Source of the DNA: a virus
Virus genome (UHGV): UHGV-0140992
DNA: 40,633 bases
Direction: 5' to 3' (one strand)
Below the pieces are notes generated by a model. That model was not told the DNA's origin. It made no database searches and was given only the letters and a program-made list of their open reading frames with translations. Position 1 is the first letter of the stretch; each line of letters begins with the position of its first letter. Shown piece by piece: positions 1-40,633 of this stretch. Position numbers and translations under genes: made by a program.

Positions 1-1427
1 AAGCACCAGTCAACAATGCTGTGCTTCTGAAAAAGATGATTGGCAAGGATAGTAAGGTCGTTCCCCTGATAGCCGTCAACATCGAATGAGTAGGCCAGAT
101 CACGGACAACACTGCCTTTCTCCTGGACGAACAGAGCAATATTCGCCACGGCAATTGGTGGGACATTGCTCGAGCCATTTGATCCCTGAGAGCTGAATGC
201 AAATGATGATGGGGTAAGCACTTTGTTCTGGTCGCCAGTGATGACGTACTCACCTCCGGAAGTCAGCGCCACCAGCGAACCAACATCAATCAGGTGACGG
301 ATCTCATTAACCTGACGCCCGGCATAGGTGTAGATAATTCTGTCGTCATCCTGCGTAGGATTGCTTTTGCCAAAATCCTTATAATCCCCAGTACGGCTGG
401 CCCAGATAGTCTGAGGGAACGCAGTCGATGCGGCGAAGTAAAGACGCTGTTGATAATAAACAACAGTGCCAGGATAACCATTAACACTGTTCCAGGCATA
501 TTTAGCCCATTTATAGCTGGCATTATCCTCGCCAACGACCTGCGAAGGGATATAGGAAATCACCTCGGCAGTTGCAGTAGTGCCATTTGCAGCAGTGATA
601 CGGGCAATGCCAAAACCACTGTGCAGATACTCCCACTCAATGCCAGTATCATCATCACCGGATCCGCCCCAGCCATCCCATGATGTGCCTTCTGTATGCG
701 AAGGGCGCAAAGTACCTGTTTTGCCTGCTGTAACGGCGCGATAGTAGTTACTGTCTGCACGGCGAATATCGCCAATCGACGTACTCTTACTGGTTTCCCA
801 TACAGGTACTGAATCCACTGCAGGCTGTTCCAGATAGAACAATTTGCCTACCTGCTCCGCGCCAAAAATAGAGACGCTTGCCGTTAACGTAATTGTCCCG
901 GTGCTGGCGCTGGCATAAACCGTCACTGACTCATCAATATTGATATCTTCAAATGGCCCGTTCTTCGTTACCACATCAACCAGTTGCCAGTTGTCATGCG
1001 CATAGCGACGCAACTCTTTCGGCGGGTATGCCGGATGAACAAGCGTAAGCACGTCTGCGCTTTGCGTGAATTTAATTCGGAACAGATCGGCTTCAGTATA
1101 TGGCGTGGCAATTTCATAAATAACATTGCTGCTGTTCAGCACCAACGCACCATCTTTGATAACGCGCATGTACTGGTGTCCGAACTCCAGAGCATAGGTC
1201 TGAACCGTCGAGAACTGGAACGGGATCAGGCGGCATTTCCGATTTGGGTATTTGGCGGCACCGACAAAACGCGTACCAGGTCGATTCTCAACGCCGCCAT
1301 ACTGCCGCACGATAAAGTTATCGCACTTGCGCAATGCCACCTGGTACTTCGCCATGTCGATACGTCCGTACAACGACGGTCCAATCTCACCACCAGCAAA
1401 GCTGGGCTGGATCCAACTGATAGCCAT
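1..1427 (-). CDS. tail tubular protein B-like (T7 gp12-like), N-terminal ~475 codons; gene runs off the window start and resumes in frame at the window end
   Basis: ATG at 1427-1425 overlaps the upstream stop (ATGA); manual minus-strand translation 1427->3 is stop-free (MAISWIQPSFAGGEIGPSLYGRIDMAKYQ...); N-terminus resembles T7 gp12; follows a gp11-like gene. Confidence 0.55.
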   Translation of the reverse strand, partial: MAISWIQPSFAGGEIGPSLYGRIDMAKYQVALRKCDNFIVRQYGGVENRPGTRFVGAAKYPNRKCRLIPFQFSTVQTYALEFGHQYMRVIKDGALVLNSSNVIYEIATPYTEADLFRIKFTQSADVLTLVHPAYPPKELRRYAHDNWQLVDVVTKNGPFEDINIDESVTVYASASTGTITLTASVSIFGAEQVGKLFYLEQPAVDSVPVWETSKSTSIGDIRRADSNYYRAVTAGKTGTLRPSHTEGTSWDGWGGSGDDDTGIEWEYLHSGFGIARITAANGTTATAEVISYIPSQVVGEDNASYKWAKYAWNSVNGYPGTVVYYQQRLYFAASTAFPQTIWASRTGDYKDFGKSNPTQDDDRIIYTYAGRQVNEIRHLIDVGSLVALTSGGEYVITGDQNKVLTPSSFAFSSQGSNGSSNVPPIAVANIALFVQEKGSVVRDLAYSFDVDGYQGNDLTILANHLFQKHSIVDWC

Positions 1428-2035
1428 CAGGACAACCTCGCAATGGTAAACTCGTCAACCGGTGGCTGTGGTTCCTGTGATTCATTCTGGCTATGCGAGC
1501 CAGCACTAAGAATCACGCGATTGTACATATTGAGAGCAAATGTACCGAGATCCGCATTCCCAGTCAGCGCCATGTTAATGGCTGCCGCAAGACGCCAGGC
1601 CAGCGCCTCCATAAAAATGGCATCAAACATGTTTACATCTGAAACGCGAGAGACATACTTGAGCCATGCCTGAGGCTGGTCTGTGTAGATCAACTTTCCT
1701 GTTCCGTTGGTGTCTGCACCAACTTCGTACTGAACGCGCATTGCTGCTGTTGGATTGCGTACACCAGGAAGCATAATTTCAGTAATGCGCAGACAATCTG
1801 ACGGGTACTGGTACGCATATTCCCAGTCAGGCGGTGGATTGCTCGTATCTGCAAGCGCCACGCGTTTGGTAGCAAAGTTCCAGTCAAAATCAGAAAGCAC
1901 AGCATCACGGCAGGCCTCAAAGTGCAGCGAACATTCCCCCGCTTCCTTGCTGGCTTCCGTCAGGCTGTTAATGCTGCGGCTGTTGCCAATATTGGACAGC
2001 GCACGATTACAGATCTCTACTACAGAGGCCATCAC
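1427..2035 (-). CDS. tail tubular protein A-like (T7 gp11-like), 202 aa
   Basis: ORF track; size and position as T7 gp11, immediately before the gp12-like gene; N-terminal similarity by recall only. Confidence 0.45.
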   Translation of the reverse strand: MMASVVEICNRALSNIGNSRSINSLTEASKEAGECSLHFEACRDAVLSDFDWNFATKRVALADTSNPPPDWEYAYQYPSDCLRITEIMLPGVRNPTAAMRVQYEVGADTNGTGKLIYTDQPQAWLKYVSRVSDVNMFDAIFMEALAWRLAAAINMALTGNADLGTFALNMYNRVILSAGSHSQNESQEPQPPVDEFTIARLS

Positions 2036-2361
2036 TCACCTCCGTTACCGTACAGAGTTTCAGCCGCTGATTTTTCTACATCCCCGGAAACAGGAGCGAT
2101 CGCCATATCAGTGATCTGCAGATCGGCGCTGCGATTAACACCATCGTCAGTTTCTTTGGCAGACAGGCCTCGAATAACAGCCTTTGCAGTTATCATCACT
2201 TCTGTTCCGACGCCCTGAGGTTGCGCCTTCAGCTTATTCAATGTGTCGTTATTAAGAGTGATGCACAGCCCCCACGGGTATTCATCGCGAGTTCTGGTTT
2301 CTCCGCTCTCATCCTGGTAGCTGTCAGTGCCGGTTTTGAGGTTTACGAGTTCCATATACAC
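2032..2361 (-). CDS. hypothetical virion-module protein, 109 aa
   Basis: ORF track; co-oriented and tightly packed within the structural operon. Confidence 0.4.
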   Translation of the reverse strand: MYMELVNLKTGTDSYQDESGETRTRDEYPWGLCITLNNDTLNKLKAQPQGVGTEVMITAKAVIRGLSAKETDDGVNRSADLQITDMAIAPVSGDVEKSAAETLYGNGGE

Positions 2362-2751: not shown

Positions 2752-3189
2752 TTAACCAGTTACTTTTGAGCGGATCGGATACGGCGTATTGGCATCAACA
2801 TCAAGACTGATACCAGCAGTGAATTCGCCAGCCGTTAGTGGGCCAGTTGCGACGGAGTAGTTAACACGCAGATATCGCTGAACACCGGCAGGCACCTTTG
2901 CAGAAACAACTCGTTTACCTGCTGTCAGGGCGGTCTTTGCCAGTGCGCCACTATCATAAATAGTGGTCCATGATCTGTTATTCTCACTCGTCTGCAACTG
3001 GATGTTTACAGTTGCATCACCGCTTGCTGCGGCGGCTGTGTTAACCAGCGCCCAAAACTCAAGCGGGTAACCCACGCCGATATCACGACGTTTTCCGTCA
3101 ATTGGACCGAGATCGATTACGTCAGTAGAAGCCGCGGTATTCGTAACCGCCTGAGCTTCGGAGAACATCAACAGTTTGTCGGTGATCAT
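2752..3189 (-). CDS. hypothetical capsid-associated protein, 145 aa
   Basis: ORF track; immediately downstream of the major capsid gene. Confidence 0.4.
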   Translation of the reverse strand: MITDKLLMFSEAQAVTNTAASTDVIDLGPIDGKRRDIGVGYPLEFWALVNTAAAASGDATVNIQLQTSENNRSWTTIYDSGALAKTALTAGKRVVSAKVPAGVQRYLRVNYSVATGPLTAGEFTAGISLDVDANTPYPIRSKVTG

Positions 3190-3240: not shown

Positions 3241-4233
3241 TTACACCACGCGGGCTTCTGTTTCCAGAAGCGCATCAGTTTCACGGATTGGTACACCACG
3301 GAATGAAGTCCACCACTCGCCTTCTGTCTCTTTTACGCTGATAGCCAGAGATGTTTTCTCCAGAGACTGCAGATCAAGAGCCTGGCCTACAGTGCGGTTC
3401 ATGTAGAACACCGGGCGGCCCATGCCACGGTTTGGAATGCGATGTAGTGCTTTAACCATCAACTTCGCAATATTTGCGGCAGAGGATGGTTCTGAAAGAT
3501 TGCTGACATCGATGTTTGCAATGCGAACAACATAACGCCAGTCACGCAGAGCAAGTCCGTTATCCCATTTGTAATGGGTGCGATAGCCTTCGTACTTGCC
3601 GCCATTAGCATCTTCCAGTGTCACCTGGCCTTTATCTTCCATCTGGATGCCAGCCTTCTGCCCTTTCGGGAAGATGCCATGCACGGTGTTTTCGCCCCAC
3701 ACCACTAACCAGATTGAGGTGTTATCTGTACCCGTGCCACCAGCATCAATGATGTTCTGAGCATTACCCGCAGACAGGCTGGAATAGCGGGAGGACAGTC
3801 CCATAAACTGCTGAGGGTTAACGCTGGAATCACCATAAAACAGCGTCTGCGCCATCTGCTGATTCATCGCTTCAATAAATGCGCGGTCTTCAGACAGGCG
3901 GAATTCGGCGGTATTGCCGTTCAGATCAGCCAGTGACTTATCGACTTCCGCATAGGTTTCCAGCATGCCAACGGAATCGGTTACCTGCACTGTGGTTGAT
4001 TTGCTTGGCTGTACGCCATAGTTCAGCAAACGCCAGGTAGCTGAAGGTAAACCAGAACGAATGGTGGTTCGGTGTCCGGTAGGAAGGTTCCCTTCGACAA
4101 AAGGCATATCCTGAAGGATCGGGTTAGTTTGACCGAGAAGCTCGATAATCTTATCGACTTTCCCGTTTGGATCGACGCGCTTACCCCAGTCAGCCAGCGT
4201 TAGCGCAGTTAAGCCTTTAACAGCCATTGTCAT
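3241..4233 (-). CDS. major capsid protein, 330 aa
   Basis: ORF track; follows the scaffold gene, typical size; assignment by gene order and composition. Confidence 0.65.
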   Translation of the reverse strand: MTMAVKGLTALTLADWGKRVDPNGKVDKIIELLGQTNPILQDMPFVEGNLPTGHRTTIRSGLPSATWRLLNYGVQPSKSTTVQVTDSVGMLETYAEVDKSLADLNGNTAEFRLSEDRAFIEAMNQQMAQTLFYGDSSVNPQQFMGLSSRYSSLSAGNAQNIIDAGGTGTDNTSIWLVVWGENTVHGIFPKGQKAGIQMEDKGQVTLEDANGGKYEGYRTHYKWDNGLALRDWRYVVRIANIDVSNLSEPSSAANIAKLMVKALHRIPNRGMGRPVFYMNRTVGQALDLQSLEKTSLAISVKETEGEWWTSFRGVPIRETDALLETEARVV

Positions 4234-4241
4234 TTCCTCTC

Positions 4242-4943
4242 TTATTTGCCATAGAGCACTTCGGCCGCACTACGCTGGCCTTCATTACCACCGGTGACCA
4301 TGCCATCTTCAGACATCGCCTTTCCGATTTTCACGAACGTTTTGACCAGATCAGGGTGATTACCCAGCCCGGTGGTGTTCAGATATTCTTTGAGTTCAGG
4401 TGTCCCGAACTGGTCAAGCGCACGCTGTGCGGCGCTAAGGTTAGAAATCAACTTGTCGCCACCGATTTCTTTGTCGGCTTTTACATCCGCAGCCCACTGC
4501 TCGGTTGTTTTCTGCCAGGCTTCTGCCTGGCGCTGCTGAACACCTGCCAGAATCTTCGGATAAGCATCAACCAGCTTTTGCGCTTGCTCGTTGGTCAGGT
4601 TTAGTTCTCGCGCCACCGGCTCGAATTCCTTCAACGCTTCTGTATCCAGCTCTACGCCTTCGGCAGCCTGAAACTCGTACTTTTCAGGCGCACCCTCTGG
4701 TTTATCGCCGTCCTTTTTTTCATCCTGCTTATCGTTTTCAGGCTTTTTGTCATCAGCAGGTTTATCGCCATCAGCAACAGGTTGTGGCTTATCACCTTCC
4801 TGTTGTGATGGATCACCAACTGGAGCAGGGTTATCACCTGCAGGCGCTGACGGTTCTGACGCAGCCGGAGCTGCTCCACCATCGACTGGTTGCTCATTGC
4901 AAAGACGGCGATACAGCAAACGCTCAAATAAATTCATGATCAC
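4242..4943 (-). CDS. scaffolding protein, 233 aa
   Basis: acidic, Pro/Ala/Asp/Lys-rich low-complexity N-terminus; located between portal and capsid. Confidence 0.6.
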   Translation of the reverse strand: MIMNLFERLLYRRLCNEQPVDGGAAPAASEPSAPAGDNPAPVGDPSQQEGDKPQPVADGDKPADDKKPENDKQDEKKDGDKPEGAPEKYEFQAAEGVELDTEALKEFEPVARELNLTNEQAQKLVDAYPKILAGVQQRQAEAWQKTTEQWAADVKADKEIGGDKLISNLSAAQRALDQFGTPELKEYLNTTGLGNHPDLVKTFVKIGKAMSEDGMVTGGNEGQRSAAEVLYGK

Positions 4944-5236
4944 TCCTGTTCACTGGCCTCTTTGGCCATCTTCAAATACTGTTCAGGGCAATGCGCCATA
5001 ACGCGCTGAAACAGTTCCAGCGCCAGATTGCGTTGCCCCTCATTAAATGCCATTGCCATAGCATCCATCGGAGAGATAGCGGAAAACACCCGGCCTTTCT
5101 CCAGCACCGACCAGACAACGCGACGCCCCTGTTCACTGCTCATGACAAAGCGAATGTCATCAATTTCACGCTGTGCCATGTCACGTTGCTTACGGGCGTT
5201 TTCTTCTTTCAGTTGATCGTCTTCGAAATCTGTCAT
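4940..5236 (-). CDS. hypothetical small protein, 98 aa
   Basis: ORF track; overlaps portal stop and scaffold start (translational coupling). Confidence 0.4.
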   Translation of the reverse strand: MTDFEDDQLKEENARKQRDMAQREIDDIRFVMSSEQGRRVVWSVLEKGRVFSAISPMDAMAMAFNEGQRNLALELFQRVMAHCPEQYLKMAKEASEQE

Positions 5237-6912
5237 TGTGATTGCCCACCCTGACCACTAACTGCATTCGCCATAGCTGACAAAACACTCGGATCCGAAG
5301 TTTTAGCTTCGCTTAGCGTCTTGGCACCCTGTGCCGCCGCCATCCCCATCGCCATCATTTGTTGCTGCTGTTGTTGCTGTGCCCGTTGCTGGCGAGCCTG
5401 CTCAACCTGTTCCTGCGGAACAATGACGGTTGGAGACACTCCGGACATATCAGCGAATGCATCGATCGCCTGATCAACGTTGAGTTTGTCGAGAGCTTCT
5501 GGTTTCGCTTGCGCAAGTTGACCAATGAAGTTAACCGTGGACGCCAGACTGGACAGGCCGATAGACTTCTGCGCCTGAGCCATGACGGAAATGTATTCGA
5601 CCTTCAGGGGCATGCCTTCCATCGCGTCAGGCGGTGTCGGCAGCATGTTTTTACGCACCATCATCGAGAAAGCGCGGTCAATGAGAGGATTAAGACATTC
5701 GTCGTTCAGACGCTCCAGAACCGGCCCCAACATCAGAAGTTTTTCTTCTTTCATTTCGATCACCGCTTCAACAGGCATCGAGCGGGTATTGATGTTCTGC
5801 AACATCATGAACAGATCGACAAAGTAGGCGCTGTTAATGATTTGACGGGTGTCCTGAATGTCTGCCACCAAATCTGCTGTACTGGGGTTAACCAGATAAG
5901 CAGGCCTGAAACCATCCTGACCAGTAATCTGATCGATATACGTGATGTCGCCAGGAAGAAGGGAGGCACGCTGATTCTTGAGGGAAGTCGGAGCAACCAT
6001 CGGCGGATTGGTGGCTTTATCAATCAACTGCGACTTGCGCTTCTGGAGAAGCTGCAATGCCTTAACAGGTCCAAGCGCCAGCATACCCGGGCATGATGAT
6101 CCATAAACATCTTCGCCGTTAACTTCCCAGCGCGGAGCCATAATTGGAAACTCATCGAATCCGGACTCACGCAACAACTTGTCGTTATCGCCACCAACCT
6201 CGTAATAAACCGATTTGAATGGCTTGTTCTTGCTATCCAGCTTCGATGTATCGCGGTCAATGTTCGGGTAAACCGAATGCATCACTTCAATCCACTTCTC
6301 GTAGGTGCCGCTTTCCCACATGCTTTTTACGGATTCGCTGACGTTATTTAGCCCGAACTCCTGAACAAGCTGACGAACAGTCATAGAGAACTTGCGAAAA
6401 CAGGTGTCCACACTGCCACGAGGTGAGTTAGCCAGGTAGTAACTGCCTATCGGGAATGGCATTGTGCGAATGATGTCCTCGTCATCCTCCAGCACCGCCA
6501 TTGCACCAGTGCTGTATGTGCCGAGGCTTCCGTATAACTGCGGAAGAGACTGGTAGAGATTCGACTTATTGAACATATCGTTCATGCGGTTCTGAACTGC
6601 CTCAAGCCACAACTTAACAGGGCCATAGTCCATCATTTCAGGATCTGGCGTAGCCAGGCGAAACCACGGACGGGCGGGGCTTGTTATGCCTGACATCATG
6701 CCGCTGGCAAGAGTGCGCGCCGCCATAGTCCCGGTCGAATCAATAATGCGTGTATTGCGTCGATCGTTACGGTTAACCTCAGAAGTCAGAAAGCGGGAAC
6801 CACGCGGGTTGATGTAATCACTCAACTCGCGCCAGTGCGGCTCGAACGACTGACGCTCGCTTTCAAGTTGTGCGAACTGTTTGTTCAATCGCTCTTTAGT
6901 TGTTTCCGCCAT
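5233..6912 (-). CDS. portal (head-to-tail connector) protein, 559 aa
   Basis: downstream of terminase; Gln/Ala/Met-rich C-terminal tail resembles the T7 gp8 C-terminus; GGAG RBS upstream. Confidence 0.8.
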   Translation of the reverse strand: MAETTKERLNKQFAQLESERQSFEPHWRELSDYINPRGSRFLTSEVNRNDRRNTRIIDSTGTMAARTLASGMMSGITSPARPWFRLATPDPEMMDYGPVKLWLEAVQNRMNDMFNKSNLYQSLPQLYGSLGTYSTGAMAVLEDDEDIIRTMPFPIGSYYLANSPRGSVDTCFRKFSMTVRQLVQEFGLNNVSESVKSMWESGTYEKWIEVMHSVYPNIDRDTSKLDSKNKPFKSVYYEVGGDNDKLLRESGFDEFPIMAPRWEVNGEDVYGSSCPGMLALGPVKALQLLQKRKSQLIDKATNPPMVAPTSLKNQRASLLPGDITYIDQITGQDGFRPAYLVNPSTADLVADIQDTRQIINSAYFVDLFMMLQNINTRSMPVEAVIEMKEEKLLMLGPVLERLNDECLNPLIDRAFSMMVRKNMLPTPPDAMEGMPLKVEYISVMAQAQKSIGLSSLASTVNFIGQLAQAKPEALDKLNVDQAIDAFADMSGVSPTVIVPQEQVEQARQQRAQQQQQQQMMAMGMAAAQGAKTLSEAKTSDPSVLSAMANAVSGQGGQSQ

Positions 6913-7560: not shown

Positions 7561-7637
7561 GTGGCATTAGCTCAGTTGGACAGAGCAACCGCCTTCTAAG
7601 CGGTTGGTCGCAGGTTCGAATCCTGCATGCCACGCCA
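7561..7637 (+). tRNA. tRNA-Arg (anticodon TCT)
   Basis: cloverleaf folded by hand: acceptor GTGGCAT/ATGCCAC, D-arm GCTC..GAGC, anticodon stem ACCGC/GCGGT with loop CTTCTAA, T-arm GCAGG-TTCGAAT-CCTGC, discriminator G plus CCA; close to E. coli argU. Confidence 0.85.
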
Positions 7638-31780: not shown

Positions 31781-34255
31781 TTATTGCGGAGTGACATCCT
31801 GTGGTCGCCACCAGTATGTCTGGTTAAACTCTTTCTTCGAACGTTGCTCCATTTTACGCAAATAACCTGGTGAAAAATACTCCTGCATCTGGTTAAAGAT
31901 CATGTGATCGAGAGCCGCCTTCAAGTACCAGAGATTCGCACCTGGCATCAGACCTTTCCCCAGCTTAACCAGATCACCACCAGTCTGCTCACTCTTCCCT
32001 TCCACAGCATTTAACGGTATGCCCTGAGCAATCTTCACTACGTCATCAACCAGACCAGCTACCGGGCCAAGCATCGACGCCAGCGCGCCGCTTCCGTACC
32101 TAGTGTGATCTGACAATAAAAAGTCACCGTAAAGGCCAAGACCACCACCTTTCAGTAGAGCACCAAGCCAAAATTTAGCAGCATCTTCTCCTGTCATCTC
32201 GCGAGGATTACGACCAGACGCAAGGTCGTTAAGTTGCTGCGACAAAGCGCCAAGAATGGTCGTACTGGCAATAAACGTCGCAATATATGCCGCACGCCCA
32301 CCAGCAGACGGCATACCCATAGCGCGTGACCAGTGACGCATAACCACCGAGATAGGGAACGATTTAAACAGGAAAACACTTCTCGTTAATTCACCTTTCC
32401 ATGTTCCACGCTGAATACCAGAACCGGTTATCAGTTGCTCACGTGCTCCCGGTGTAATAACAGCCATATCAACTTCTTCAGTTACGGCACCGAGCAGTTT
32501 ACGCATTGCCTCAAATTTCACGCGTTCAGGCTCACCAAGATGTTTAACTGCTGAATCAGGGATACGCATAATGCTTTCCGGTGTCAGCATCGTATTATTA
32601 CCGTTCCCCCAGTCCTCCTGTTTCGCCAGCTTCCATACGCTCCAGTCTGTGTCAGTAATCCCTTTGCTTTTCAGGATACGAAAATCAGAGTCATCGAGGC
32701 TACGAAGGTCTGGTGTACGTGACACTACTTCTCCCAGGCTTCCCATCATGGTTACGCCATAGGCGCGCTTGTGCGCATCTGACCATGCTGTAAGCCCACT
32801 GGCACGCATTACCGCCGTTGCCGCCCAACGAGACACTGACGGCCCCATATTATCCATCGCCCAGCGGTTAACGCTGCCAAGTAGAGATTCCATCGCCAGA
32901 CCAGCGCGGCGCGCCCGCGCAAGTTCTGTACGGTTCGTTGGGTCCATAGCTTCAAGCTGGTTGCGGAATAACTGGTTCATTGGAAGGTTGGTAACCTTCG
33001 CAGACAGATACATGGTTCCAAGATCAGAGAACGATGACAGCAACGCGGATCCGAGTCTGCTGGCAACCAGCCAGTTGCGGATATTGTCAGACCATCGCGC
33101 GATGTGCGGATTCGCTACAGGCTGTGTCTTTCCGGAAATAAAGTTGTACAGATTCTCTGTGTTGTTCGCCAGCCGCTCGACTTTACCGGTTTTACTCGGG
33201 TTAGCTGTTGCCGTTTCTGCCTTCACCTGATCAAGAAGAGAGCGGAAAACATGATCGGGGTTTGGGCCATATGTTTCCACCAGTGCAATATCTTTACTGA
33301 TACCTTCCAGGTGACCGACCATGATTTCCCATAGAGAGCGATCGCCATAAAGTTGCTGATATTGCAGATAGGAATCTGCATCTTTGAAATGTATCTGTCG
33401 TGATGCATTACCACGGTTAGCACGTGCGCCGGAAATTCGCATTCCGGTATCAGTAAGCTTATTCAGCCCACCAGTAGCGATCGTGTTATAAGCCTCTCCA
33501 AGAAATGAAGACAACTCGGCATCGTTCATCAGTTGTCCATCGGCTCGGATATAATATTTGCGATCCAGCTTACCTATAACATCGCTAACCCACTTATCCT
33601 TTGATACTGCCCCAACCTTTTCCATAGAATGATGTTGAGGGATCCCCCAGTTTTCGAGATAGCCAATGTCCCCACCAGCATCATTAAACCGGCGGCGCAG
33701 CAGCTCTGTAACTTCTCTCCACGCCTTAGCACCGTTTCTTGCTTTAGCATTGCCAGTATTTTGCCCCCGCATTTCATATACCAGGTCACGTACGCCCGCT
33801 TCATCTTCAAACAGACCAAAAAAGCGAGGATCAACTGCTTCGAATGCCTCCTGCAATTGACTCAATGCATAATCACGGGTGGCTTTTGTTCTGGATTCAA
33901 CAGAGAGGAAATTAGATTTACCGTCTGCATTAAAAGCTATAGTACGGTTAAGAGCGCCAAGTTTCCCATCAGCCCCTTGATAGCTATTGATAAATTTATC
34001 CAATCTCTGACGCGCGGCTATAGTGAGAGCCACACGACGTTTCTTTAATGCCGCTTCTCGCTGTAATTCTTCAGATGCCAATTGTGCTGCTCGATATAGC
34101 CGCTCTGATTCGGAAAGTTGTCTCCACGACATCGGGTCATCACGAGCAATGGAGCGCATATTTCGATAAATGCGGTCTTCAATGTTCTGTATTTCTCGCG
34201 CCGTTAACGTGCGCTGCGCCGCCTGCTGGACCGCTTGTATACATTCCTGTCTCAT
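31781..34255 (-). CDS. internal virion / ejection protein, 824 aa
   Basis: large co-oriented protein in the gp14-gp16-equivalent block after the tail tube genes. Confidence 0.55.
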   Translation of the reverse strand: MRQECIQAVQQAAQRTLTAREIQNIEDRIYRNMRSIARDDPMSWRQLSESERLYRAAQLASEELQREAALKKRRVALTIAARQRLDKFINSYQGADGKLGALNRTIAFNADGKSNFLSVESRTKATRDYALSQLQEAFEAVDPRFFGLFEDEAGVRDLVYEMRGQNTGNAKARNGAKAWREVTELLRRRFNDAGGDIGYLENWGIPQHHSMEKVGAVSKDKWVSDVIGKLDRKYYIRADGQLMNDAELSSFLGEAYNTIATGGLNKLTDTGMRISGARANRGNASRQIHFKDADSYLQYQQLYGDRSLWEIMVGHLEGISKDIALVETYGPNPDHVFRSLLDQVKAETATANPSKTGKVERLANNTENLYNFISGKTQPVANPHIARWSDNIRNWLVASRLGSALLSSFSDLGTMYLSAKVTNLPMNQLFRNQLEAMDPTNRTELARARRAGLAMESLLGSVNRWAMDNMGPSVSRWAATAVMRASGLTAWSDAHKRAYGVTMMGSLGEVVSRTPDLRSLDDSDFRILKSKGITDTDWSVWKLAKQEDWGNGNNTMLTPESIMRIPDSAVKHLGEPERVKFEAMRKLLGAVTEEVDMAVITPGAREQLITGSGIQRGTWKGELTRSVFLFKSFPISVVMRHWSRAMGMPSAGGRAAYIATFIASTTILGALSQQLNDLASGRNPREMTGEDAAKFWLGALLKGGGLGLYGDFLLSDHTRYGSGALASMLGPVAGLVDDVVKIAQGIPLNAVEGKSEQTGGDLVKLGKGLMPGANLWYLKAALDHMIFNQMQEYFSPGYLRKMEQRSKKEFNQTYWWRPQDVTPQ

Positions 34256-34260
34256 TTAAT

Positions 34261-36063
34261 TTAACCTCTCAAGAAACACGCCACAGCGACATCAAACAGG
34301 CTGGAATCCTGTATTGCCTGCTCACTTTCCCTGTTCGCTTCATCCAGTACTTCACGCGCGCTGCGCGATTGTGGATTACCATCATCATCCAGCACGGTGA
34401 TTATCATGTCCGGATATTCAAGCAGCGAGTCTTCAGCTATACGCAGATCAATATCTCCTGCCGGATCTGCCATCATTTTTTGTTCTGTCTGTTGCAATAT
34501 CTTACCGGGATCAAAAGGAGCTACTTCGTCTGGCGTCCTGACCTCTGCTGTTTTATAGAATGAAACAGCCTGAGCATTAAGTTCACTTTCTGCCTGCTGT
34601 CTCCGAGCCAGTTCTGCTCGAGCTTCAAAAAACTGACCGCCAGGCTCATGCGGTGCCAACGCGTTACGGGAAAATTCCAGGCGTTCTTGTGCCTGCCGGA
34701 TTCGTTGGTCAATATCCCGAAGTCTGGCCTGTTTATCTGATCGAGCACGAGACAAAGCTTTACCGCTACCGGCTGGATCTTCTGCAAGAATTTGTGCGCG
34801 CTGTTCAGTGAGATTTTCAATAATTCGTTGGCTATTAGCGATTTCAGACTGGTAAACCTGTCTATCGCCACGCGGCAAAAGCTGCGCGGCCTGTTCTTCA
34901 AGCAACCGATTTTCTATAGCGCGCGCCGTTACTCCATCATCTACAGATGACAGAGCCTCATTAACTGCCTGAGACAGCAGACTCTTGCGTCCAGGAATTT
35001 CACTGAAAGATGCAGACTCAACAATGCTGGCAACGTCTACAGGTCTCCCCTGGCTAACATCAGACATGGCTTTTCGCAGAGCCTGAATGTGCGAATTACG
35101 CGAAAGCACGTTGATCGGCACGCCGGGAGCAATATCAATTTCAGCATGATGAGCGGCATTCGCCGCCAGTGCAGCATCGATATCAACTGGTGAAAAATTT
35201 GGTGCGCTTGTAGACTCGCCGCGAGAGTTAATAAATCTGCCGACACCACCAAACGCCACCCCAAGAACAGCATCAATAGCAATTGCCTGTCGATCCAACA
35301 CATCATACTGGTTAGCCATTTCGCTATAGCCACCATCACGAAGCGTTTTTGCAGTAAGCCCACGCTGTGCCATACCGAACGCAATATTTGTACCTGCGGC
35401 ATAGGCAATATCTGGCGTTGCACGTACTGCTGTTGCTGCGGCGCGTCGCACTGAACTTTCACCCGTCCGCGCAAGCTGAGCCGCCACACCTTCCGCCAGC
35501 GCACCACCAGCACGTAACCCGAGGCTCATAGGGATCAGTGTTCCGGCACCAGCAGTAATACCCTGCACTAATCCCGCTTCCTGCGCCGTCCTGAAATCAA
35601 CACCCTGTGCTGTAAGCCGTTCAAACTCAGAAAAACCCTGTAGAGAAGTTACCGCCGCAGCACCTCCGACCGGACCACCGAGCGTTGTACCGACAACAGC
35701 CTGCCCGCCCATATCGAACAACCCATAAAGGACCTGCCCGGCGGTTCCGGTTGTCGCGGCATCAGGCGTCAGCCGCTTAACCTGCTGCTCTGCTAGTTTT
35801 CTCTGCTCAGCAATGTATGAAACTGAAGTGTCATTGATCGAGGTGTTTTCGTTAACAAACTGAGCAATCGGGGATACGATTTTATCCATCCCTGCCCATA
35901 GCAACTGATCTGGCTTTGCCACCAGCCCGGAGTACAAACCAGACAATGCCGCTCCTACAGCATTGTCGAAAAAACCAACATCGCTGTTAAAGCCAGCTGG
36001 ATTTGATGCTGCTTCGTCAAGCTGCTGATTCTGGTTTACTGGATTAAGGCCAAAGTAACTCAT
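34261..36063 (-). CDS. internal virion / ejection protein, 600 aa, Gly/Ala-rich
   Basis: glycine-zipper-like hydrophobic stretches; position in the ejection-protein block. Confidence 0.5.
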   Translation of the reverse strand: MSYFGLNPVNQNQQLDEAASNPAGFNSDVGFFDNAVGAALSGLYSGLVAKPDQLLWAGMDKIVSPIAQFVNENTSINDTSVSYIAEQRKLAEQQVKRLTPDAATTGTAGQVLYGLFDMGGQAVVGTTLGGPVGGAAAVTSLQGFSEFERLTAQGVDFRTAQEAGLVQGITAGAGTLIPMSLGLRAGGALAEGVAAQLARTGESSVRRAAATAVRATPDIAYAAGTNIAFGMAQRGLTAKTLRDGGYSEMANQYDVLDRQAIAIDAVLGVAFGGVGRFINSRGESTSAPNFSPVDIDAALAANAAHHAEIDIAPGVPINVLSRNSHIQALRKAMSDVSQGRPVDVASIVESASFSEIPGRKSLLSQAVNEALSSVDDGVTARAIENRLLEEQAAQLLPRGDRQVYQSEIANSQRIIENLTEQRAQILAEDPAGSGKALSRARSDKQARLRDIDQRIRQAQERLEFSRNALAPHEPGGQFFEARAELARRQQAESELNAQAVSFYKTAEVRTPDEVAPFDPGKILQQTEQKMMADPAGDIDLRIAEDSLLEYPDMIITVLDDDGNPQSRSAREVLDEANRESEQAIQDSSLFDVAVACFLRG

Positions 36064-38573
36064 TGCGGAATATCTCCGGAGAATCTCTGACGCTTCTGTG
36101 TCAGATTAAGAACAACGGGAGAACCATCATCTTTCAGCAGATAACCAGTACCAAGTTTCACCAGGTACTGACTATCGCCGTAACTTTGCAAACCATACTG
36201 ACCAGGCGGTGTTTTTATCCCGGAGCCGACAACTTGTTCATTCCAAGCCTGATTAACCTGCTTATCGAATTGCTCTGCAGACATTCCCCACGGCAAAAGG
36301 ACATTCCCCATTCCGTTATAGTCATGCACGCCACCTGTAGCTACGTTAACAGCCTGTTTCCAGACATCATTGTCAATTTCGCCTGATACCACGCCTTTTT
36401 TCGCCATCACACCAGCGTAATAATCCTTTGCGATCTCGTATGCCATTGATGCGCCCTGAGCGTCACCAGCAAATGCATCCTTCACCATGTCAGAAAACTC
36501 AAGGCGAAGATCAGCATCTTTAGGCATCGGAATACCTTTCGCATCATCAGTACCTTTACGAGCCGCCGCGCCAGCAAGAATTGTCTGCGCAGCGGTTTCA
36601 GGAGACACGGAAACATCCGGATTAAACCAGTTTTTTTCTGCCAAAATACCACCAGGCTTATCCATCAGTATCCCGGCAACGGCAGCAGATGGAGCGTTGG
36701 CACTGATCTGCTGTAGTGCTGACATATACACCTGCCCACCACCAGTGCTCTGCCTGATGGTATCGAGATATGCTGCCTGTTGGGAAACTGGAGCATCACG
36801 AAAGAAAACACCGATCTGATTGGCCTCGTCTTTGGAAAAGAACGTCAGTGGAGTGCCATATGACTTAGCAAGGTCACTGACCTGAGCGGCACGCAAGGCA
36901 ACGCTCTGTCCAAAGTTATCCTTATTGCTCATGTCGATAGGCTTTGCCTGTCGGGAGGCAAGAGAGAACTGCACAGGATCCGACTGCCGCTGCTTTATCA
37001 CCTGATTTGCAGCCGAAACAACGTTGTCATAAAGAGTTGCGCGTGCCGCATACCCCTCCCCTGTATCACCAGTATCCGGGCGTAATTGCTCAACATATGC
37101 TGTAATGCTGCTTGTCGGCATGTTGCGGAAAGAGCCTATATACTGTCCGGCGATCTGCGTATTCTTAAACTCGGTATATCGCAGGTTTCCTTCTCTGACT
37201 CCATAAGCTGCAATAAAATCATCCTCACCAGGTGGGTTAGGAAATTCAATGCCACGCATATACGCAGCCGTCGCATCGCGAACCCGGCTGTCGAGCATCG
37301 TTTTATATTCAGCCTGCTGTTGTCTGGCTAGTGCATCAGTCTGTCGCAACACGCTGGCCTGATCTGATTCACTTAAAGCATCGAACCAGGCTACACCGGT
37401 ATAACGTTTATTTTTTGTCGGTAGCTGAGAAAGCCCCAGCGCAGCACTAACACCTGCAGTTAACTGCTGATCACTGTATGGCTGGCTACCGTTTTCATGA
37501 TGGATAATGGCTGCACAAAGCGCCTTCAGGGTATCAGGATTTGATGCATCGAGAGGCTCATCAGCAGAAACGCCAAGTTGTTCGCACACTGCTTTGATAT
37601 ACGACATAGTGTCATTTTTATCAGTAGGCGGTGCCCAGCGATTAATTATCTCGCTGACGGTATCAATACCCTGCCGCTGATACGACATCAGGTTCCGCCC
37701 TAATGCACGAATACCGTGTTCAGGGGTTTCGAATTTGGCAAAGCGACCATCATCACCAGTCTGCCCAACCCACGGATTAGTTTTGCTGTATTCAAGATTG
37801 CCGGGGTTATTGTTGCGTATACCGCGGGTACGATCGGAAGAGCCACTATCTGCTACAGCACGGCGAGAACCAGCAGCAGTATCGCTTAACTCGCCGTTTT
37901 GCTGTCTTACCTGAAGATAGTTTGCTCCAATAGCATTTTGAGCAGTTGCTTTTGCTGTTGCTTCTTTAAACTCGATTTTCTTGGCCTGGATTTGCTCGTC
38001 ACTCCAGCCATGTGCAATGCCGTAATCCTCAATTTGCTGGAAAGTTTGCTTATTAGCCAATACGTATGCGGCGTTGTCGCCATACAATGCTGCGGCATTT
38101 TTACCATTGTTCAGCAGCGTAGCCTGAAACTGGCCTTCTTCGTAGGCATTTATTTGCCCTATCTCGTGCCGCCCGGCCTGCGTAGTGAACTGAATGCGCT
38201 GCTGCTGCGCCTGCTGCATGAAAGCATTACGAGCCTGTTCATCCGGCAGCGACATAGCCAGTTGTTCGACCTGAGCATCAAACTGCTGCGTATACTCCTG
38301 ACCTTTTCCAATAGCATTTTTCCCTTTCAGGTTAAGCAAACCTGTTTCAGGGTTATTCAGCAGATCGCTGCTTATCTGGCTTAAGCTAAGAGAAGCATCC
38401 TGAGCCATAGCAACATTCGCACGCTGTTTTGCCTGCGCAATAATACCTGCATATTGCTCTGCAACATCGCCAAGTACATCACCGACATTTGGTGTCTGAA
38501 ACGATGAGAATCCCTGCGTCGAAATCCCTCTGCTCTGAACCTGACGGCCCGATGTTGTTGGTACAACTGGCAT
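36060..38573 (-). CDS. internal virion protein, 837 aa, possible cell-wall-degrading domain
   Basis: position; conserved-looking GIRNNNPGNLEYS ... RFAKFETPEHGIRALGRNL block that I associate with virion-borne muralytic domains (recall, uncertain). Confidence 0.5.
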   Translation of the reverse strand: MPVVPTTSGRQVQSRGISTQGFSSFQTPNVGDVLGDVAEQYAGIIAQAKQRANVAMAQDASLSLSQISSDLLNNPETGLLNLKGKNAIGKGQEYTQQFDAQVEQLAMSLPDEQARNAFMQQAQQQRIQFTTQAGRHEIGQINAYEEGQFQATLLNNGKNAAALYGDNAAYVLANKQTFQQIEDYGIAHGWSDEQIQAKKIEFKEATAKATAQNAIGANYLQVRQQNGELSDTAAGSRRAVADSGSSDRTRGIRNNNPGNLEYSKTNPWVGQTGDDGRFAKFETPEHGIRALGRNLMSYQRQGIDTVSEIINRWAPPTDKNDTMSYIKAVCEQLGVSADEPLDASNPDTLKALCAAIIHHENGSQPYSDQQLTAGVSAALGLSQLPTKNKRYTGVAWFDALSESDQASVLRQTDALARQQQAEYKTMLDSRVRDATAAYMRGIEFPNPPGEDDFIAAYGVREGNLRYTEFKNTQIAGQYIGSFRNMPTSSITAYVEQLRPDTGDTGEGYAARATLYDNVVSAANQVIKQRQSDPVQFSLASRQAKPIDMSNKDNFGQSVALRAAQVSDLAKSYGTPLTFFSKDEANQIGVFFRDAPVSQQAAYLDTIRQSTGGGQVYMSALQQISANAPSAAVAGILMDKPGGILAEKNWFNPDVSVSPETAAQTILAGAAARKGTDDAKGIPMPKDADLRLEFSDMVKDAFAGDAQGASMAYEIAKDYYAGVMAKKGVVSGEIDNDVWKQAVNVATGGVHDYNGMGNVLLPWGMSAEQFDKQVNQAWNEQVVGSGIKTPPGQYGLQSYGDSQYLVKLGTGYLLKDDGSPVVLNLTQKRQRFSGDIPQ

Positions 38574-38585: not shown

Positions 38586-39125
38586 TTATCGACCGGTTGG
38601 AGTGCCAACAGCAGCAGAAATCGGCGCAGCCTTCTGAGAGAACGGGCTCCACGTTCCGCCGCCCATCTGGTATGCACCGTATGCTTTTAGTGGTGCCGTT
38701 AACAAAGTGCTGGTCATCGATGATTTAGCAGCCGACTGAGCAGCAGCCCCCTGTGCCTGAGCATTCATTCCCTGAACCTGATACCCATATGCCTCACGCT
38801 GAGCATTATTCACTGTCGTTAACGCATCAAGAGTGCCGAACTGAGCATTATCCGCAAAAACGTCAAGAGCTGTTCCGCTACTTAATTCCGCACCGGTAGC
38901 CCCCATAGTGGCCGCCGCAGTGCCTGAGCGTTGACGCATTTCACGACGACGCTGATCCGCTTCAATATTCCCACGATTGATTGAATCCTGTGCCTGAGCT
39001 TCAGCAATTTCAGCATTCCGATCAGCTATGGCTGACTGGTATTTTGCCTGCTTGCTCTGGCTGTACATTGACGCGGCTGTGGATGCCACTGTGACGGCAA
39101 CCAAAGCGATGGCTGGGTTACACAT
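38586..39125 (-). CDS. internal virion protein, 179 aa (gp14-like position)
   Basis: N-terminal hydrophobic helix then Ala/Gln-rich region. Confidence 0.4.
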   Translation of the reverse strand: MCNPAIALVAVTVASTAASMYSQSKQAKYQSAIADRNAEIAEAQAQDSINRGNIEADQRRREMRQRSGTAAATMGATGAELSSGTALDVFADNAQFGTLDALTTVNNAQREAYGYQVQGMNAQAQGAAAQSAAKSSMTSTLLTAPLKAYGAYQMGGGTWSPFSQKAAPISAAVGTPTGR

Positions 39126-39589
39126 TATTTTCTCTCCATGTGAAATCTGTGGAAATTAAGACCAAGAGCACCATAAGGCGCGGCTTCTTCAAGCCTGAAT
39201 CCAAGCCAGTGCAGCCATGCTTTGGCAACATGGTTTCGCTCGTCGACGTAGTTTTCCAGGCGCGGATAAACTGCCAGCATCTGCTGCAATACAGGGCGGC
39301 AGTGGCGAAGAAATGTCTTCTGATATTTTTCAATACGGCTGGTTCCTACCAGCCAGGGCGTACCATTGCCACCGATCATTGACGCCGGAGATACGCCAAA
39401 CATGGTTACCAGTTCTCCGTTCGCAAATCCTGACCAGGCCATAGTCGCAGTACGCAGACCAACACGCAGCGCATCTTCGGTAGTCATCAGTGATACCGCA
39501 TACAGTTCGTCAATATCAGCCTGACGAACATCCGGCAAAATCATCTGAAGATGCTCTTCGGTTGCGGGAATAATTTGAACATTGATCAT
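39125..39589 (-). CDS. virion protein, 154 aa (gp13-like position)
   Basis: position between tail tube B and internal virion proteins; stop/start overlaps. Confidence 0.4.
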   Translation of the reverse strand: MINVQIIPATEEHLQMILPDVRQADIDELYAVSLMTTEDALRVGLRTATMAWSGFANGELVTMFGVSPASMIGGNGTPWLVGTSRIEKYQKTFLRHCRPVLQQMLAVYPRLENYVDERNHVAKAWLHWLGFRLEEAAPYGALGLNFHRFHMERK

Positions 39590-40633
39590 CAGAACCCACC
39601 AACAGTAAGGCGAGGAATAACGGCAAGAACAGACAGCGGCAACGGATCAAGCTGACGGATTTTTACACGTCCGTTTTTGCCCCAGTTACTGTCCAGTTTC
39701 ACTTCTACTTTTCCGGTAGCATCATCAACAGGATCATCGTAGAACTCGAATTCACGCTGTGGATATTCGTACCATTTACCGCCGGGCGTAGTCGCCCAGA
39801 TGCCGCGACTGGCATTCACAACCAGAGTAACGGACGGGATCACCTGTTTTTTGTCCAGCAGCGTTTCCTGTCCGTTAATGTTGATATCCAGTGTTTCGAA
39901 TTCAGCAGTTATTGGCAGGCCGATGTGCACTACAGCCCCCGGTGATTCCAGCGTGACGGCACATCCGGAAACCACTTTCTGTGGTTCCACGTTCGCATCA
40001 GAGAGAATGTTTACGGTCTGGCCTTCAAGATGAGACAGGCCTCCAAATGTCCGGCGCGCCATCTGCCAGTTCGTGGTGGCCACATTCCTGAGGGATGGCG
40101 GGACGTTCCTGTTAGCACGAACCACTACAGCGGTATTGCTGGTTACAGAAATAATGTCGCAACGTAATTCTTTTGACACCTCATCGCCAGTATCAGGATC
40201 AGTTCCGGTATAAGGGAACTGTAGTTGCGCGCCGACATCACTACTGGTGAAGTACGCACCACCAGAAACACTGATTGTATATTCCGCGCGGTAATCCCAT
40301 TCGCCAGAACCACCAGTGATGATCATCGTTCTGTCAGACGTATTTCTTCCATCATAGCTAAGGCCAGAATCAACAAAGAAAGCATCTTCATCGCTGGTAA
40401 ATAAACGGCTGGACAGTCGCTCGATGTATCTCACTGTTTGCCCGTTAACGGTTCGGTTAACGACGAAATACACCGCATCTTCATTGCCTTCGCTGATACT
40501 GCATGTGCTTTCATATTTTCCGGTACTGGATTGTGGTGCCCATGCAAAAACCTGCTGATCACGCAAATAGGTCATCACCAGTAATTTACCGTCATCACGG
40601 ATGCAGAAGGCGCTGGAGTAAGGGACTATTGAG
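39589..40633 (-). CDS. tail tubular protein B-like, C-terminal part (continuation of the gene at 1..1427 across the window junction)
   Basis: frame of track ORF 39589..40578 stays open up to 40632 and joins the frame ending at position 1 through junction codon TTC; combined about 823 aa, comparable to T7 gp12 (794 aa). Confidence 0.55.
   Translation of the reverse strand, partial: SIVPYSSAFCIRDDGKLLVMTYLRDQQVFAWAPQSSTGKYESTCSISEGNEDAVYFVVNRTVNGQTVRYIERLSSRLFTSDEDAFFVDSGLSYDGRNTSDRTMIITGGSGEWDYRAEYTISVSGGAYFTSSDVGAQLQFPYTGTDPDTGDEVSKELRCDIISVTSNTAVVVRANRNVPPSLRNVATTNWQMARRTFGGLSHLEGQTVNILSDANVEPQKVVSGCAVTLESPGAVVHIGLPITAEFETLDININGQETLLDKKQVIPSVTLVVNASRGIWATTPGGKWYEYPQREFEFYDDPVDDATGKVEVKLDSNWGKNGRVKIRQLDPLPLSVLAVIPRLTVGGF

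Follow-up and report, generated by a model that had tools for sequence, protein, structure and literature searches.

The closest published phage to the DNA analysed here is vB_EcoP_ZX5 (MW722083), a temperate Uetakevirus with an O87:H52:K1 host, an endosialidase tail protein and integration at guaA (Pathogens 2022, PMC9782041). The window, by which we mean the whole 40,633-bp stretch under study, is with a probability of about 93% a complete temperate podovirus genome of the genus Uetakevirus (the epsilon15/phiV10 group) whose tailspike targets the polysialic-acid K1 capsule of E. coli. It is an ordinary member of the genus bearing a K1-capsule tailspike. Its gene content and order, its protein family assignments, its attP sequence and the chimeric build of its tailspike are direct observations of this analysis. 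The window is collinear gene for gene with phiV10 (72.8% coverage, 94.8% identity) and epsilon15 (49.1% coverage, 77.2% identity), and most of its proteins are 96-100% identical to their phiV10 or ZX5 counterparts, the exceptions including the tailspike, the gp14-like protein, an 837-aa ejection protein, the RecE/RecT pair, the replication genes and the accessory genes. The original prediction had seen an unusual combination of modules, but the same arrangement occurs gene for gene in epsilon15 and phiV10, and a K1 version was already in print with ZX5. It had also named near-identity to a well-characterised phage as evidence against itself, and ZX5, with 84.0% coverage and 96.8% identity, comes largely to that.

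No deposited phage is identical to the window, about 16% of which has no match in ZX5, and positions 7000-31900 are covered to at least 80% in none of the complete E. coli genomes. The departures from the closest relatives are only the usual swaps of accessory genes. A 95% rule is usual for phage species; the product of identity and coverage with ZX5, about 81%, falls under it, so that the window would represent a species separate from ZX5.

On circularisation, an 823-aa open reading frame appears across the window ends (39589..40633 joined to 1..1427, minus strand), and the window is a complete genome, either circular or circularly permuted, whose break point lies inside the tail-nozzle gene. 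Such closure fits circular permutation of the virion DNA, but any circular assembly would give the same closure. It could be argued that the window holds no viable phage genome but is an assembly artefact or a prophage remnant, defective or cryptic, given that it is cut inside a gene and that two chicken E. coli chromosomes match it unbroken across the intact attP region, which would be unusual if just one prophage were integrated. However, all conserved Uetakevirus genes are full-length, including the nozzle gene once circularised, the length of 40.6 kb lies within the genus range of 39-45 kb, and the window ends meet exactly as in phiV10. We regard a remnant or artefact as very unlikely and retain the reading of a complete Uetakevirus genome.

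Nearly every module named in the original prediction is present in this genome, the scaffold alone being unconfirmed. Terminase does precede portal on the minus strand. The small subunit TerS (9733..10407; Pfam PF03592 Terminase_2, E = 1.4e-29; phrog_51) is 100% identical in amino acids to that of phiV10. The large subunit TerL (8261..9736; phrog_2) is not of the T7 type; it has no Pfam match at E <= 0.01, T7 terminase families included, and is likened to P1 PacB and Sf6 gp2 in the phiV10 and epsilon15 records. DNA packaging would be carried out by a terminase other than the T7 type. A tRNA-Arg (anticodon TCT) at 7561..7637 on the plus strand, detected with ARAGORN and Rfam (RF00005, 73 bits), is annotated in O157 typing phages 9 and 10 as well. 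The portal protein (5233..6912, minus strand; PF12236, E = 6.4e-187; Carin-1 portal 8ck0_A, E = 7.6e-178) belongs to a family that T7 gp8 also matches and that is common to the window and T7. Between it and a 233-aa protein, a 98-aa Bbp19-like protein is listed on the minus strand. The 233-aa protein (4242..4943, minus strand) occupies the scaffold position, but the name is not borne out by any Pfam, NCBIfam or PDB match; phrog_458 is a 'protease' family, and public records call the protein 'protease' or 'peptidase', again without domain support. Its N-terminal ~85 residues are proline- and acid-rich, the remainder is predicted to be all-helical, and its AlphaFold (AF2) model is of low confidence (pLDDT 46). 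The major capsid protein (3241..4233, minus strand) is of the epsilon15/BPP-1 type (PF20911 GP7, E = 2.1e-149; 3j4u_A of BPP-1, E = 9.5e-129; 3j40_A, epsilon15 gp7, E = 2e-85). A Bbp16-like capsid cement protein (2752..3189; PF21190, E = 1.2e-46) and an epsilon15 gp10-like capsid decoration protein (2032..2361; PF21628, E = 6.1e-51) are encoded on the same strand; neither gene had been listed originally.

The order predicted for the remainder of the virion genes, from capsid through tube A (adaptor), tube B (nozzle) and internal proteins to tailspike, is seen on the minus strand. The adaptor (1427..2035; PDB 8ck1_E, E = 2.9e-26) has the T7 gp11 fold: in a Foldseek search its AF2 model (pLDDT 84) aligns to 8ck1_E with a TM of 0.83 and to T7 gp11 (7box_M, E = 3.5e-6) with a TM of 0.57. 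The nozzle, its N-terminal part given as 1..1427 and its C-terminal part as 39589..40633, matches the 'Tail Nozzle' 8ck1_A (E = 2.5e-216), LME-1 9efk_M (E = 3.6e-15) and phrog_376. Five internal or ejection proteins together span 31781-39589 on the minus strand: one at the gp13 position (39125..39589; phrog_308), one of the T7 gp14 family (38586..39125; PF24072, E = 8.2e-8; 32.8 bits, the cut-off being 27), which T7 gp14 matches too, and three large ones of 837, 600 and 824 aa (31781..38573; phrog_992, phrog_7182, phrog_1145, phrog_684). The first of the three has a transglycosylase-like region, and the annotation of epsilon15 gp15 names a lytic transglycosylase. The internal proteins, including the gp14-family and transglycosylase-bearing ones, may be ejected so that the DNA can cross the envelope.

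How far this virion is T7-like, as originally proposed, can be stated narrowly. We scanned 10 virion and terminase proteins of T7; a Pfam family exists for 9 of them, and the window matches just two of these families, portal PF12236 and gp14 PF24072; pairwise, none of its proteins is significantly similar to a T7 protein. 'T7-like' holds solely as remote homology, through the portal and gp14-like families and the gp11 fold of the adaptor, whereas capsid, decoration proteins and terminase are not of the T7 type. The tails of Carin-1 and LME-1 are T7-like structurally, without sequence similarity, according to published work.

The early region bears out the prediction of lambdoid replication, with a DnaT-domain protein and a lambda-P-like protein at 14532..16128 on the minus strand (PF17948, E = 1.6e-18; PF06992, E = 5.1e-56). 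On the plus strand, a YqaJ/RecE-like exonuclease and RecT (18026..19957; PF09588, PF03837) are 91-93% identical in amino acids to those of epsilon15; ZX5, HEMP4, PH444 and phiV10 yield no match to them at E <= 1e-5. The accessory early region (10448..14414, minus strand) encodes DUF1064, Eae/Ead/Ea22-like, Mom-like (XF1762 family) and DUF551 proteins and a regulator; it shares patches of 94-98% DNA identity with phages of the Stx-converting, P1-like and P22-like kinds, with coverage never above 36%. It is conceivable that a T7-like structural block was recently joined to a lambdoid early region in a new mosaic lineage, as first proposed: the shared portal and gp14-like families and the adaptor fold would be in line with this, as would the lambda-P, Ead/Ea22 and DUF551 genes and the patches of 94-98% identity in lambdoid and Stx-converting phages. 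However, epsilon15, phiV10, ZX5 and others have the joint architecture, which is therefore ancestral to a named genus rather than new; moreover, the window lacks pairwise similarity to T7 proteins, its capsid, decoration proteins and terminase fall outside the T7 families, and no open reading frame of at least 300 aa gives a Pfam RNA-polymerase match. As a claim of novelty this origin is refuted by the collinearity with epsilon15 and phiV10, and we hold it to be extremely improbable. The genome is best read as an ordinary Uetakevirus.

As predicted, this Uetakevirus has its lysis cassette after the tailspike gene, beside the attachment site and the integrase gene. The cassette (23071..24868, minus strand) comprises two holin-like proteins, a GH19 endolysin, Rz and an embedded Rz1 (PF16931, PF05449, PF00182, PF10721), and Rz1 (23079-23354) carries the lipobox LAGC. 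The attP core ATTGAGTGGGAATGATT (22944..22960, minus strand) equals the 3' end of guaA, and prophage-host junctions in E. coli genomes stop at its position. The 17-mer is identical to that published for phiV10, epsilon15 and ZX5 (PMC9782041). The tyrosine integrase (21503..22753, minus strand; PF22022, PF00589) has the N-terminal domain Arm-DNA-bind_3 (PF13356), and the phiV10 integrase, 98% identical to it, is annotated cd00801 INT_P4, in agreement with the predicted P4 type. It would insert the genome at the 17-bp core and rebuild the 3' end of guaA.

A lambda-style switch had also been proposed, and divergent repressor and cro-like genes are indeed found at 16452-17421, but the repressor (16837..17421, plus strand; PDB 5d50_A, E = 3.5e-42) is of the SPC32H Rep type and has as its partner a small antirepressor encoded downstream of a LexA box. 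Pfam detects HTH_3 alone in it and no S24 (autocleavage) domain. The Cro-like regulator (16452..16682, minus strand; phrog_35) is 100% identical in amino acids to phiV10 p41. The antirepressor region, 28453-31334 on the plus strand, had been missing from the original list. It opens with a predicted LexA (SOS) box, CTGTATAAATATACAG (28453..28468), an exact match to the CTGT-N8-ACAG consensus; three such matches occur in the window, where chance would give 0.63; the box lies 21 nt upstream of the start codon of the small SPC32H-type antirepressor (28490..28747, plus strand; PDB 5d50_E 'Anti-repressor protein', E = 4.1e-47). Inserted within the region is a minus-strand gene for a 242-aa zinc-finger-like protein (28770..29498; phrog_6762), 96% identical to a TL-2011b protein and absent from ZX5, HEMP4, phiV10 and epsilon15. 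There follow, on the plus strand, immI-like RNA elements (a1/b1 targets, isrK and C4 antisense RNA; 29650..29847), with Rfam scores over gathering for RF01394 (67.7 bits) and RF01695 (66 bits) and slightly under it for RF03163 (44.1 bits), and a Bro-N antirepressor (29881..30606; PF02498, E = 1e-19; phrog_130), whose C-terminal domain (phrog_450 at residues 158-239) is related to the small antirepressor.

Induction most likely proceeds by antirepression. The two-HTH SPC32H-type repressor, without a recognised autocleavage domain, would maintain lysogeny, and LexA cleavage would derepress the small antirepressor gene, while the second antirepressor, of the Bro-N type, would lie behind the C4-type antisense RNA module. 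Because the 242-aa gene is reversed between the two, a single LexA-controlled transcript may not reach the second antirepressor. The repressor of ZX5 and its homologue of the Bro-N antirepressor (ORF4) were tested by overexpression (PMC9782041), and a passage in a review, citing Kim and Ryu (2013), states that LexA-controlled antirepressors drive induction. The repressor-antirepressor system of Salmonella phage SPC32H (PDB 5d50) resembles the window in that homologues of both Rep and Ant are present, with a LexA box upstream of ant; the window differs in having a further antirepressor, of the Bro-N type, downstream of a C4/isrK RNA module and a reversed gene separating the two antirepressor genes.

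The tailspike (25175..28294, minus strand) is chimeric: the anchor domain of the genus (~aa 1-200) is joined to an endosialidase (205-876), and an intramolecular chaperone (877-1039) follows. It has five endosialidase Pfam domains and matches PDB endoNF 3gvl/1v0e (1,047 bits) and, at E = 1e-35, domain 1 of Carin-1 Dpo31. Over 2,393 bp (25204-27596) its DNA is 99.4% identical to CUS-3 siaK1, which together with the Pfam domains substantiates the predicted K1 endosialidase. The catalytic residues E581, R596 and R647 of K1F endoNF and its cleavage serine Ser911 all have conserved counterparts in the alignment. The gene (at least 80% covered) is found in 72 of 5,426 complete E. coli genomes and is near-identical among the matches listed. 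Six trimeric tailspikes would bind the T7-fold adaptor and nozzle via the conserved N-terminal anchor, the endosialidase domain would cleave the K1 capsule, and the chaperone domain would be cut off at Ser877 once folded. The host range of this phage, like its lysogeny and induction, we infer from relatives; ZX5, with a tailspike 99.7% identical in amino acids, grows on a K1 host, which we count as support for K1 targeting.

Compared with known systems, the window is closest to ZX5, which shares its gene order, tailspike and attP and has an integrase and a repressor each 99% identical in amino acids. Unlike ZX5, the window carries RecE and RecT of the epsilon15 type, a gp14-like protein only 64% identical, and additional genes (the 242-aa gene, a 193-aa gene, and the Mom-like gene with other accessory genes). 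The type Uetakeviruses, Escherichia phage phiV10 and Salmonella phage epsilon15, are syntenic with the window over the whole genome and resemble it in their head and tail genes and lysis cassette, in attP and the P4-type integrase, and in the repressor/cro switch and replication of the DnaT type. They carry O-antigen tailspikes, however, and between tailspike and lysis genes they hold genes for serotype conversion (in phiV10 this is oac, in epsilon15 polymerase and inhibitor genes), where the window has just 306 bp with a terminator. K1F endoNF shares the domain series, the catalytic residues and the C-terminal chaperone (62% amino-acid identity over residues 196-1039), whereas its N-terminal anchor is T7 gp17-like rather than of the Uetakevirus type, and K1F, unlike the window, is a true T7-like phage. 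K1F has a lytic life cycle and codes for an RNA polymerase of its own. The P22-like K1 prophage CUS-3 (Lederbergvirus) is like the window in its endosialidase, 95% identical from ~aa 193 to the end, and in being temperate and K1-specific (for the window, by inference from relatives); it differs in its virion, control and replication genes and integration site, and has a phase-variable neuO region to which the window shows no similarity.

Joining the two ends of the window restores a continuous 823-aa minus-strand ORF (1427 to 1, then 40633 to 39589), and the same ends are adjacent in the coordinates of phiV10, a type Uetakevirus, too. The window is a complete phage genome in circular permutation. 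In a megablast search of 50,697 phage records, the kind of whole-genome comparison that the original prediction had called for, Uetakeviruses are the closest phages, led by the temperate K1-host phage vB_EcoP_ZX5 (hereafter ZX5; coverage 84.0%, identity over the covered part 96.8%, identity multiplied by coverage 81.3). The corresponding values are 78.3%, 97.1% and 76.0 for HEMP4, 72.3%, 95.9% and 69.4 for the PH444 segment, 72.8%, 94.8% and 69.0 for phiV10, and 49.1%, 77.2% and 37.9 for epsilon15. The ICTV sets the limit for a genus at about 70% for nucleotide identity multiplied by coverage relative to a classified member, and the value against ZX5, a classified Uetakevirus, lies above it. 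The Uetakevirus gene order is kept as well: virion, lysis, integration and switch genes are all collinear with phiV10 and epsilon15, and this collinearity spans terminase, head, tail, tailspike, lysis, attP/int and early region. By nucleotide identity and gene order, the genome is assigned to Uetakevirus, a known and well-described genus. Under the 95% rule, the usual species threshold, it is probably a separate species from known phages, and no complete E. coli genome covers at least 80% of positions 7000-31900. The modules listed in the original prediction are all present and in the order given there. Their reading as an unusual combination is not supported, since the plan is the standard one of a named genus and its K1 variant, with a short-tailed virion reported for ZX5, is already in print (PMC9782041).

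Just downstream of a phrog_536 regulator lies the gene for the small terminase subunit (9733-10407), and the large subunit (8261-9736) has no match in the PDB or Pfam. The phiV10 and epsilon15 records compare the terminase to P1 PacB and Sf6 gp2; it is not of the T7 type. The portal gene (5233-6912) is followed by genes for a Bbp19-like protein, a 233-aa protein (4242-4943, minus strand) in the portal-capsid interval and the major capsid protein (3241-4233), which belongs to the epsilon15 gp7 family (PF20911) and has as its nearest solved relative the BPP-1 capsid protein (PDB 3j4u_A; also 3j40_A, epsilon15 gp7). Two decoration genes missing from the original prediction, one Bbp16-like (2752-3189; PF21190) and one gp10-like (2032-2361; PF21628), come next, and the three families confirm an epsilon15-type capsid with both kinds of decoration. 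The head is of the epsilon15/BPP-1 type plus extra cement proteins. The 233-aa protein had been proposed as the scaffold, a role with which its position and composition would be consistent, about 85 N-terminal residues being proline- and acid-rich and predicted to be disordered and the remainder predicted to be helical. However, nothing in Pfam, NCBIfam or the PDB matches it, and its public name in PHROGs, GenBank and NCBI records is protease or peptidase, a name that itself lacks domain support for this portal-capsid gene. Its AlphaFold model, built from a shallow alignment of sequences that all share 81% or more identity with the query, has a pLDDT of 46, too low a confidence for a fold search. 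The interval that separates the large terminase gene from the portal gene also contains, on the other strand, a tRNA-Arg(TCT) gene (7561-7637, plus strand) and a 113-aa ORF (phrog_27507; 7829-8170, plus strand) that ZX5, HEMP4, phiV10 and epsilon15 do not carry.

The virion had been called T7-like, which holds for gene order, for the portal and gp14 families and for the fold of the adaptor, but not for sequence, capsid or terminase. The portal shares family PF12236 with T7 gp8 (E 6.4e-187 for the window protein and 2.8e-113 for gp8). Among the five internal proteins (31781-39589), one has a transglycosylase-like region and another falls into the same family as T7 gp14 (PF24072; 32.8 bits, cut-off 27). 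Although 9 of 10 T7 virion and terminase proteins have a Pfam family, the window matches only these two: the Pfam families of gp9, gp10, gp11 and gp12 (among them Tube, PF17212, and Phage_nozzle, PF25675), gp13, the gp16 SLT domain and gp19 have no match there. The T7 capsid family PF21703 is replaced by PF20911, PF05396 and PF22530, looked for as signs of a gp9 scaffold and a gp19-type terminase, are without a match, the terminase genes lie ahead of the portal instead of at the right end of the genome as in T7-like phages, and no ORF of at least 300 aa has a Pfam match to an RNA polymerase, the single-subunit form of which is a mark of T7-like phages (Autographiviridae). Pairwise comparison of 17 window virion proteins with 14 T7 proteins (phmmer and BLASTP) returned nothing significant, the best E-values being about 0.001-0.03 in this 14-sequence database; four of these top matches pair positional counterparts (portal with gp8, the 233-aa protein with gp9, a 154-aa protein with gp13 and a 179-aa protein with gp14). 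Strong matches to solved chains of the marine phage Carin-1 are seen for the portal, the adaptor (1427-2035), the nozzle, whose gene spans the window ends, and the tailspike anchor, and weaker ones to Legionella phage LME-1 for adaptor and nozzle. According to the LME-1 paper, tails of the Carin-1/LME-1 type are close to the T7 tail in structure, while the protein sequences of LME-1 and T7 are dissimilar. Indeed, the AlphaFold model of the adaptor (pLDDT 84) matches Carin-1 8ck1_E with a TM score of 0.83 and T7 gp11 with E 3.5e-6, a TM score of 0.57 and 13% identity, and other podovirus gp11 homologues match it too; the epsilon15 RefSeq record notes an HHpred match of gp11 to T7 tail tubular protein A. 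The tail and ejection apparatus appears to share fold and gene order with T7, and its likeness to T7 is only remote. Since the head-tail-terminase combination is already known for epsilon15-like phages, the make-up of the virion is nothing new.

As predicted, the lysis genes lie after the tailspike and next to the attachment site, in the order tailspike, lysis cassette, attP, integrase. The cassette (23071-24868) encodes two holin-like proteins, a GH19 endolysin, Rz and an embedded Rz1 with a lipobox. The integrase (21503-22753), expected to be P4-type, indeed combines an Arm-DNA-bind_3 domain with a tyrosine recombinase catalytic domain (PF13356, E 3.9e-20; PF22022; PF00589), and the 98%-identical phiV10 integrase is annotated as cd00801 INT_P4. 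In lysogens, similarity to the window ends at 22960, within the last 15 nt of guaA. The attP site (22944-22960) reads, as its reverse complement, ATTGAGTGGGAATGATT, which is identical to the attP sequence given for phiV10, epsilon15 and ZX5 (PMC9782041). Two E. coli isolates from chicken, GPEC1337 (NZ_CM142779.1, about 1,341,015-1,366,265) and GPEC403-625 (NZ_CM142769.1), match the window without a break from integrase across an intact attP to Rz, where other lysogens break at guaA; tandem prophages, another integration site or an excised form in the assembly could account for this.

In the early region we found genes for a methylase, PerC-like and AlpA-like proteins, RecE/RecT, the repressor and a Cro-like regulator, a DnaT-domain protein and a lambda-P-like protein, as well as a block of the Eae/Ead/Ea22/DUF551 type. 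Of the lambda-like replication module that had been predicted, a P-like protein (PF06992, E 5.1e-56) is present; the product of the gene upstream of it carries a DnaT domain, and Pfam did not match it to lambda O. No N or Q antiterminator was flagged among the proteins scanned, which included part of the small ORFs. The RecE-like/RecT pair (18026-19957, plus strand) is 91-93% identical in amino acids to that of Salmonella phage epsilon15, whereas nothing in the four E. coli relatives compared matches it at E <= 1e-5, so that the module has apparently crossed between host genera. For the gp14-like protein, identity is 99% with PH444 but only 64% with the other relatives, and the 10.8-13.9 kb block is a patchwork with 94-98% identity to Stx-converting, P1-like and P22-like phages. 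This block includes a gene, missing in the closest Uetakeviruses, for a Mom-like protein of 176 aa (12184-12714, minus strand; PHROG 'Mom-like DNA modification protein', E 9.5e-42; NCBIfam XF1762, E 1.3e-60), which may modify DNA together with an MT-A70 methylase (20645-21307). PADLOC found no known defence system among 10 accessory proteins, its sole match being a type II methyltransferase. The differences from relatives are ordinary accessory-gene swaps of temperate phages.

A lambda-style switch had been expected, and the layout, judged from gene arrangement, is lambda-like, with a repressor gene (16837-17421, plus strand) divergent from a cro-like gene (16452-16682, minus strand) across a 154-bp spacer in which a repeat search found short imperfect repeats only. 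However, the repressor has HTH domains only, Pfam detecting no S24 autocleavage domain, and it is of the type of the SPC32H repressor, its best PDB match (5d50_A, E 3.5e-42), accompanied by antirepressors. These are encoded in a plus-strand regulatory island (28453-31334), which separates the ejection genes from the tailspike gene and which the original prediction did not list. Its 85-aa ORF (28490-28747), labelled hypothetical in ZX5 and phiV10, matches the SPC32H antirepressor (5d50_E, E 4.1e-47) and by homology is clearly an SPC32H-type antirepressor gene; the annotation of this gene upstream of the tailspike in both phages should be corrected accordingly. A putative LexA box, CTGTATAAATATACAG (28453-28468), is a perfect CTGT-N8-ACAG located 21 nt before the ATG of this small ant gene, a motif that occurs three times in the window versus 0.63 times expected by chance. 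All elements of the SPC32H-type scheme are in place, namely Rep and small Ant homologues and a LexA box upstream of ant. According to a review citing Kim and Ryu 2013, cleavage of LexA in such phages frees the antirepressor to inactivate the repressor. Farther along the island, immI-like RNA elements (29650-29847) comprise the a1/b1 targets together with isrK-like and C4 antisense RNAs, both of which score above the Rfam gathering threshold, and this P1-immI-like set lies directly upstream of the gene for a 241-aa Bro-N antirepressor. The C-terminal domain of the Bro-N protein and the small Ant fall into one PHROG. Between the two antirepressor genes, we also noted a reversed gene for a 242-aa protein (28770-29498, minus strand) with zinc-finger, endonuclease VII-like or Lar-like motifs; it has no counterpart in ZX5, HEMP4, phiV10 or epsilon15, is found elsewhere only in TL-2011b (96% identity) and is distantly related to proteins of Yersinia and Aeromonas phages.

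This gene content points to antirepression as the likely mechanism of induction. It is possible, though less likely than not, that induction in this phage group joins two inputs on one repressor, a LexA-controlled small Ant and a Bro-N antirepressor gated by C4/isrK, in which case both antirepressors would act on the same target. To our knowledge, such a dual-antirepressor circuit has not been described for E. coli Uetakeviruses. In the overexpression experiments of the ZX5 authors, lytic growth was blocked by the repressor and favoured by the Bro-N protein, and only the latter was treated as an antirepressor in that work (PMC9782041).

The tailspike (25175-28294) had been predicted to be a K1 endosialidase, and the evidence agrees. 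Five endosialidase Pfam domains (PF12218, PF12217, PF12195, PF12219 and PF13884) score above cut-off within residues 205-937, residues 205-876 match crystal structures of endoNF, the K1F phage endosialidase (3gvl/1v0e, about 1,047 bits), and the C-terminal S74 chaperone matches 3gw6 (E 2.4e-93), so that N-terminal extension, beta-propeller with its inserted beta-barrel, and stalk are all present. Residues E547, R562, R613 and S877 align with E581, R596, R647 and S911 of endoNF, which we take to be its catalytic Glu/Arg/Arg and cleavage serine, and are conserved. The protein is a predicted endoNF-type (GH58) endosialidase that would cleave the alpha-2,8 polysialic acid of K1; ZX5, whose tailspike is 99.7% identical, plates on a K1 strain (PMC9782041). 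Residues 1-209 match domain 1 of the Carin-1 tailspike and other Uetakevirus tailspike anchors, and from about residue 193 on the protein is 95% identical in amino acids to the CUS-3 endosialidase, the DNA of 25204-27596 being 99.4% identical to CUS-3 siaK1. The tailspike region has a G+C content of 0.43-0.45 versus about 0.51 in the head genes. Since CUS-3 is an unrelated, P22-like prophage, these identities are a clear case of recent exchange of the receptor-binding domain between two genera of temperate podoviruses, Uetakevirus and that of CUS-3, a pattern already described for Uetakeviruses and Lederbergviruses.

Of 5,426 complete E. coli genomes, 72 carry the tailspike gene with a coverage of at least 80%, which makes the K1-specific Uetakevirus a common prophage type; identity is 99.8-99.9% in the 20 best matches, among which are APEC O1, SF-468 and an isolate from cerebrospinal fluid. 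K1 strains are agents of neonatal meningitis and avian colibacillosis. Phages with endosialidases are candidates for therapy against them, a treatment that resident prophages with the same tailspike and immunity could influence. The neuO region of CUS-3, which encodes a capsule O-acetyltransferase, has no similarity within the window. Serotype-conversion genes lie behind the tailspike gene in phiV10 (oac) and in epsilon15 (polymerase and inhibitor genes), whereas the window has in their place only 306 bp of non-coding DNA with a terminator (24869-25174).
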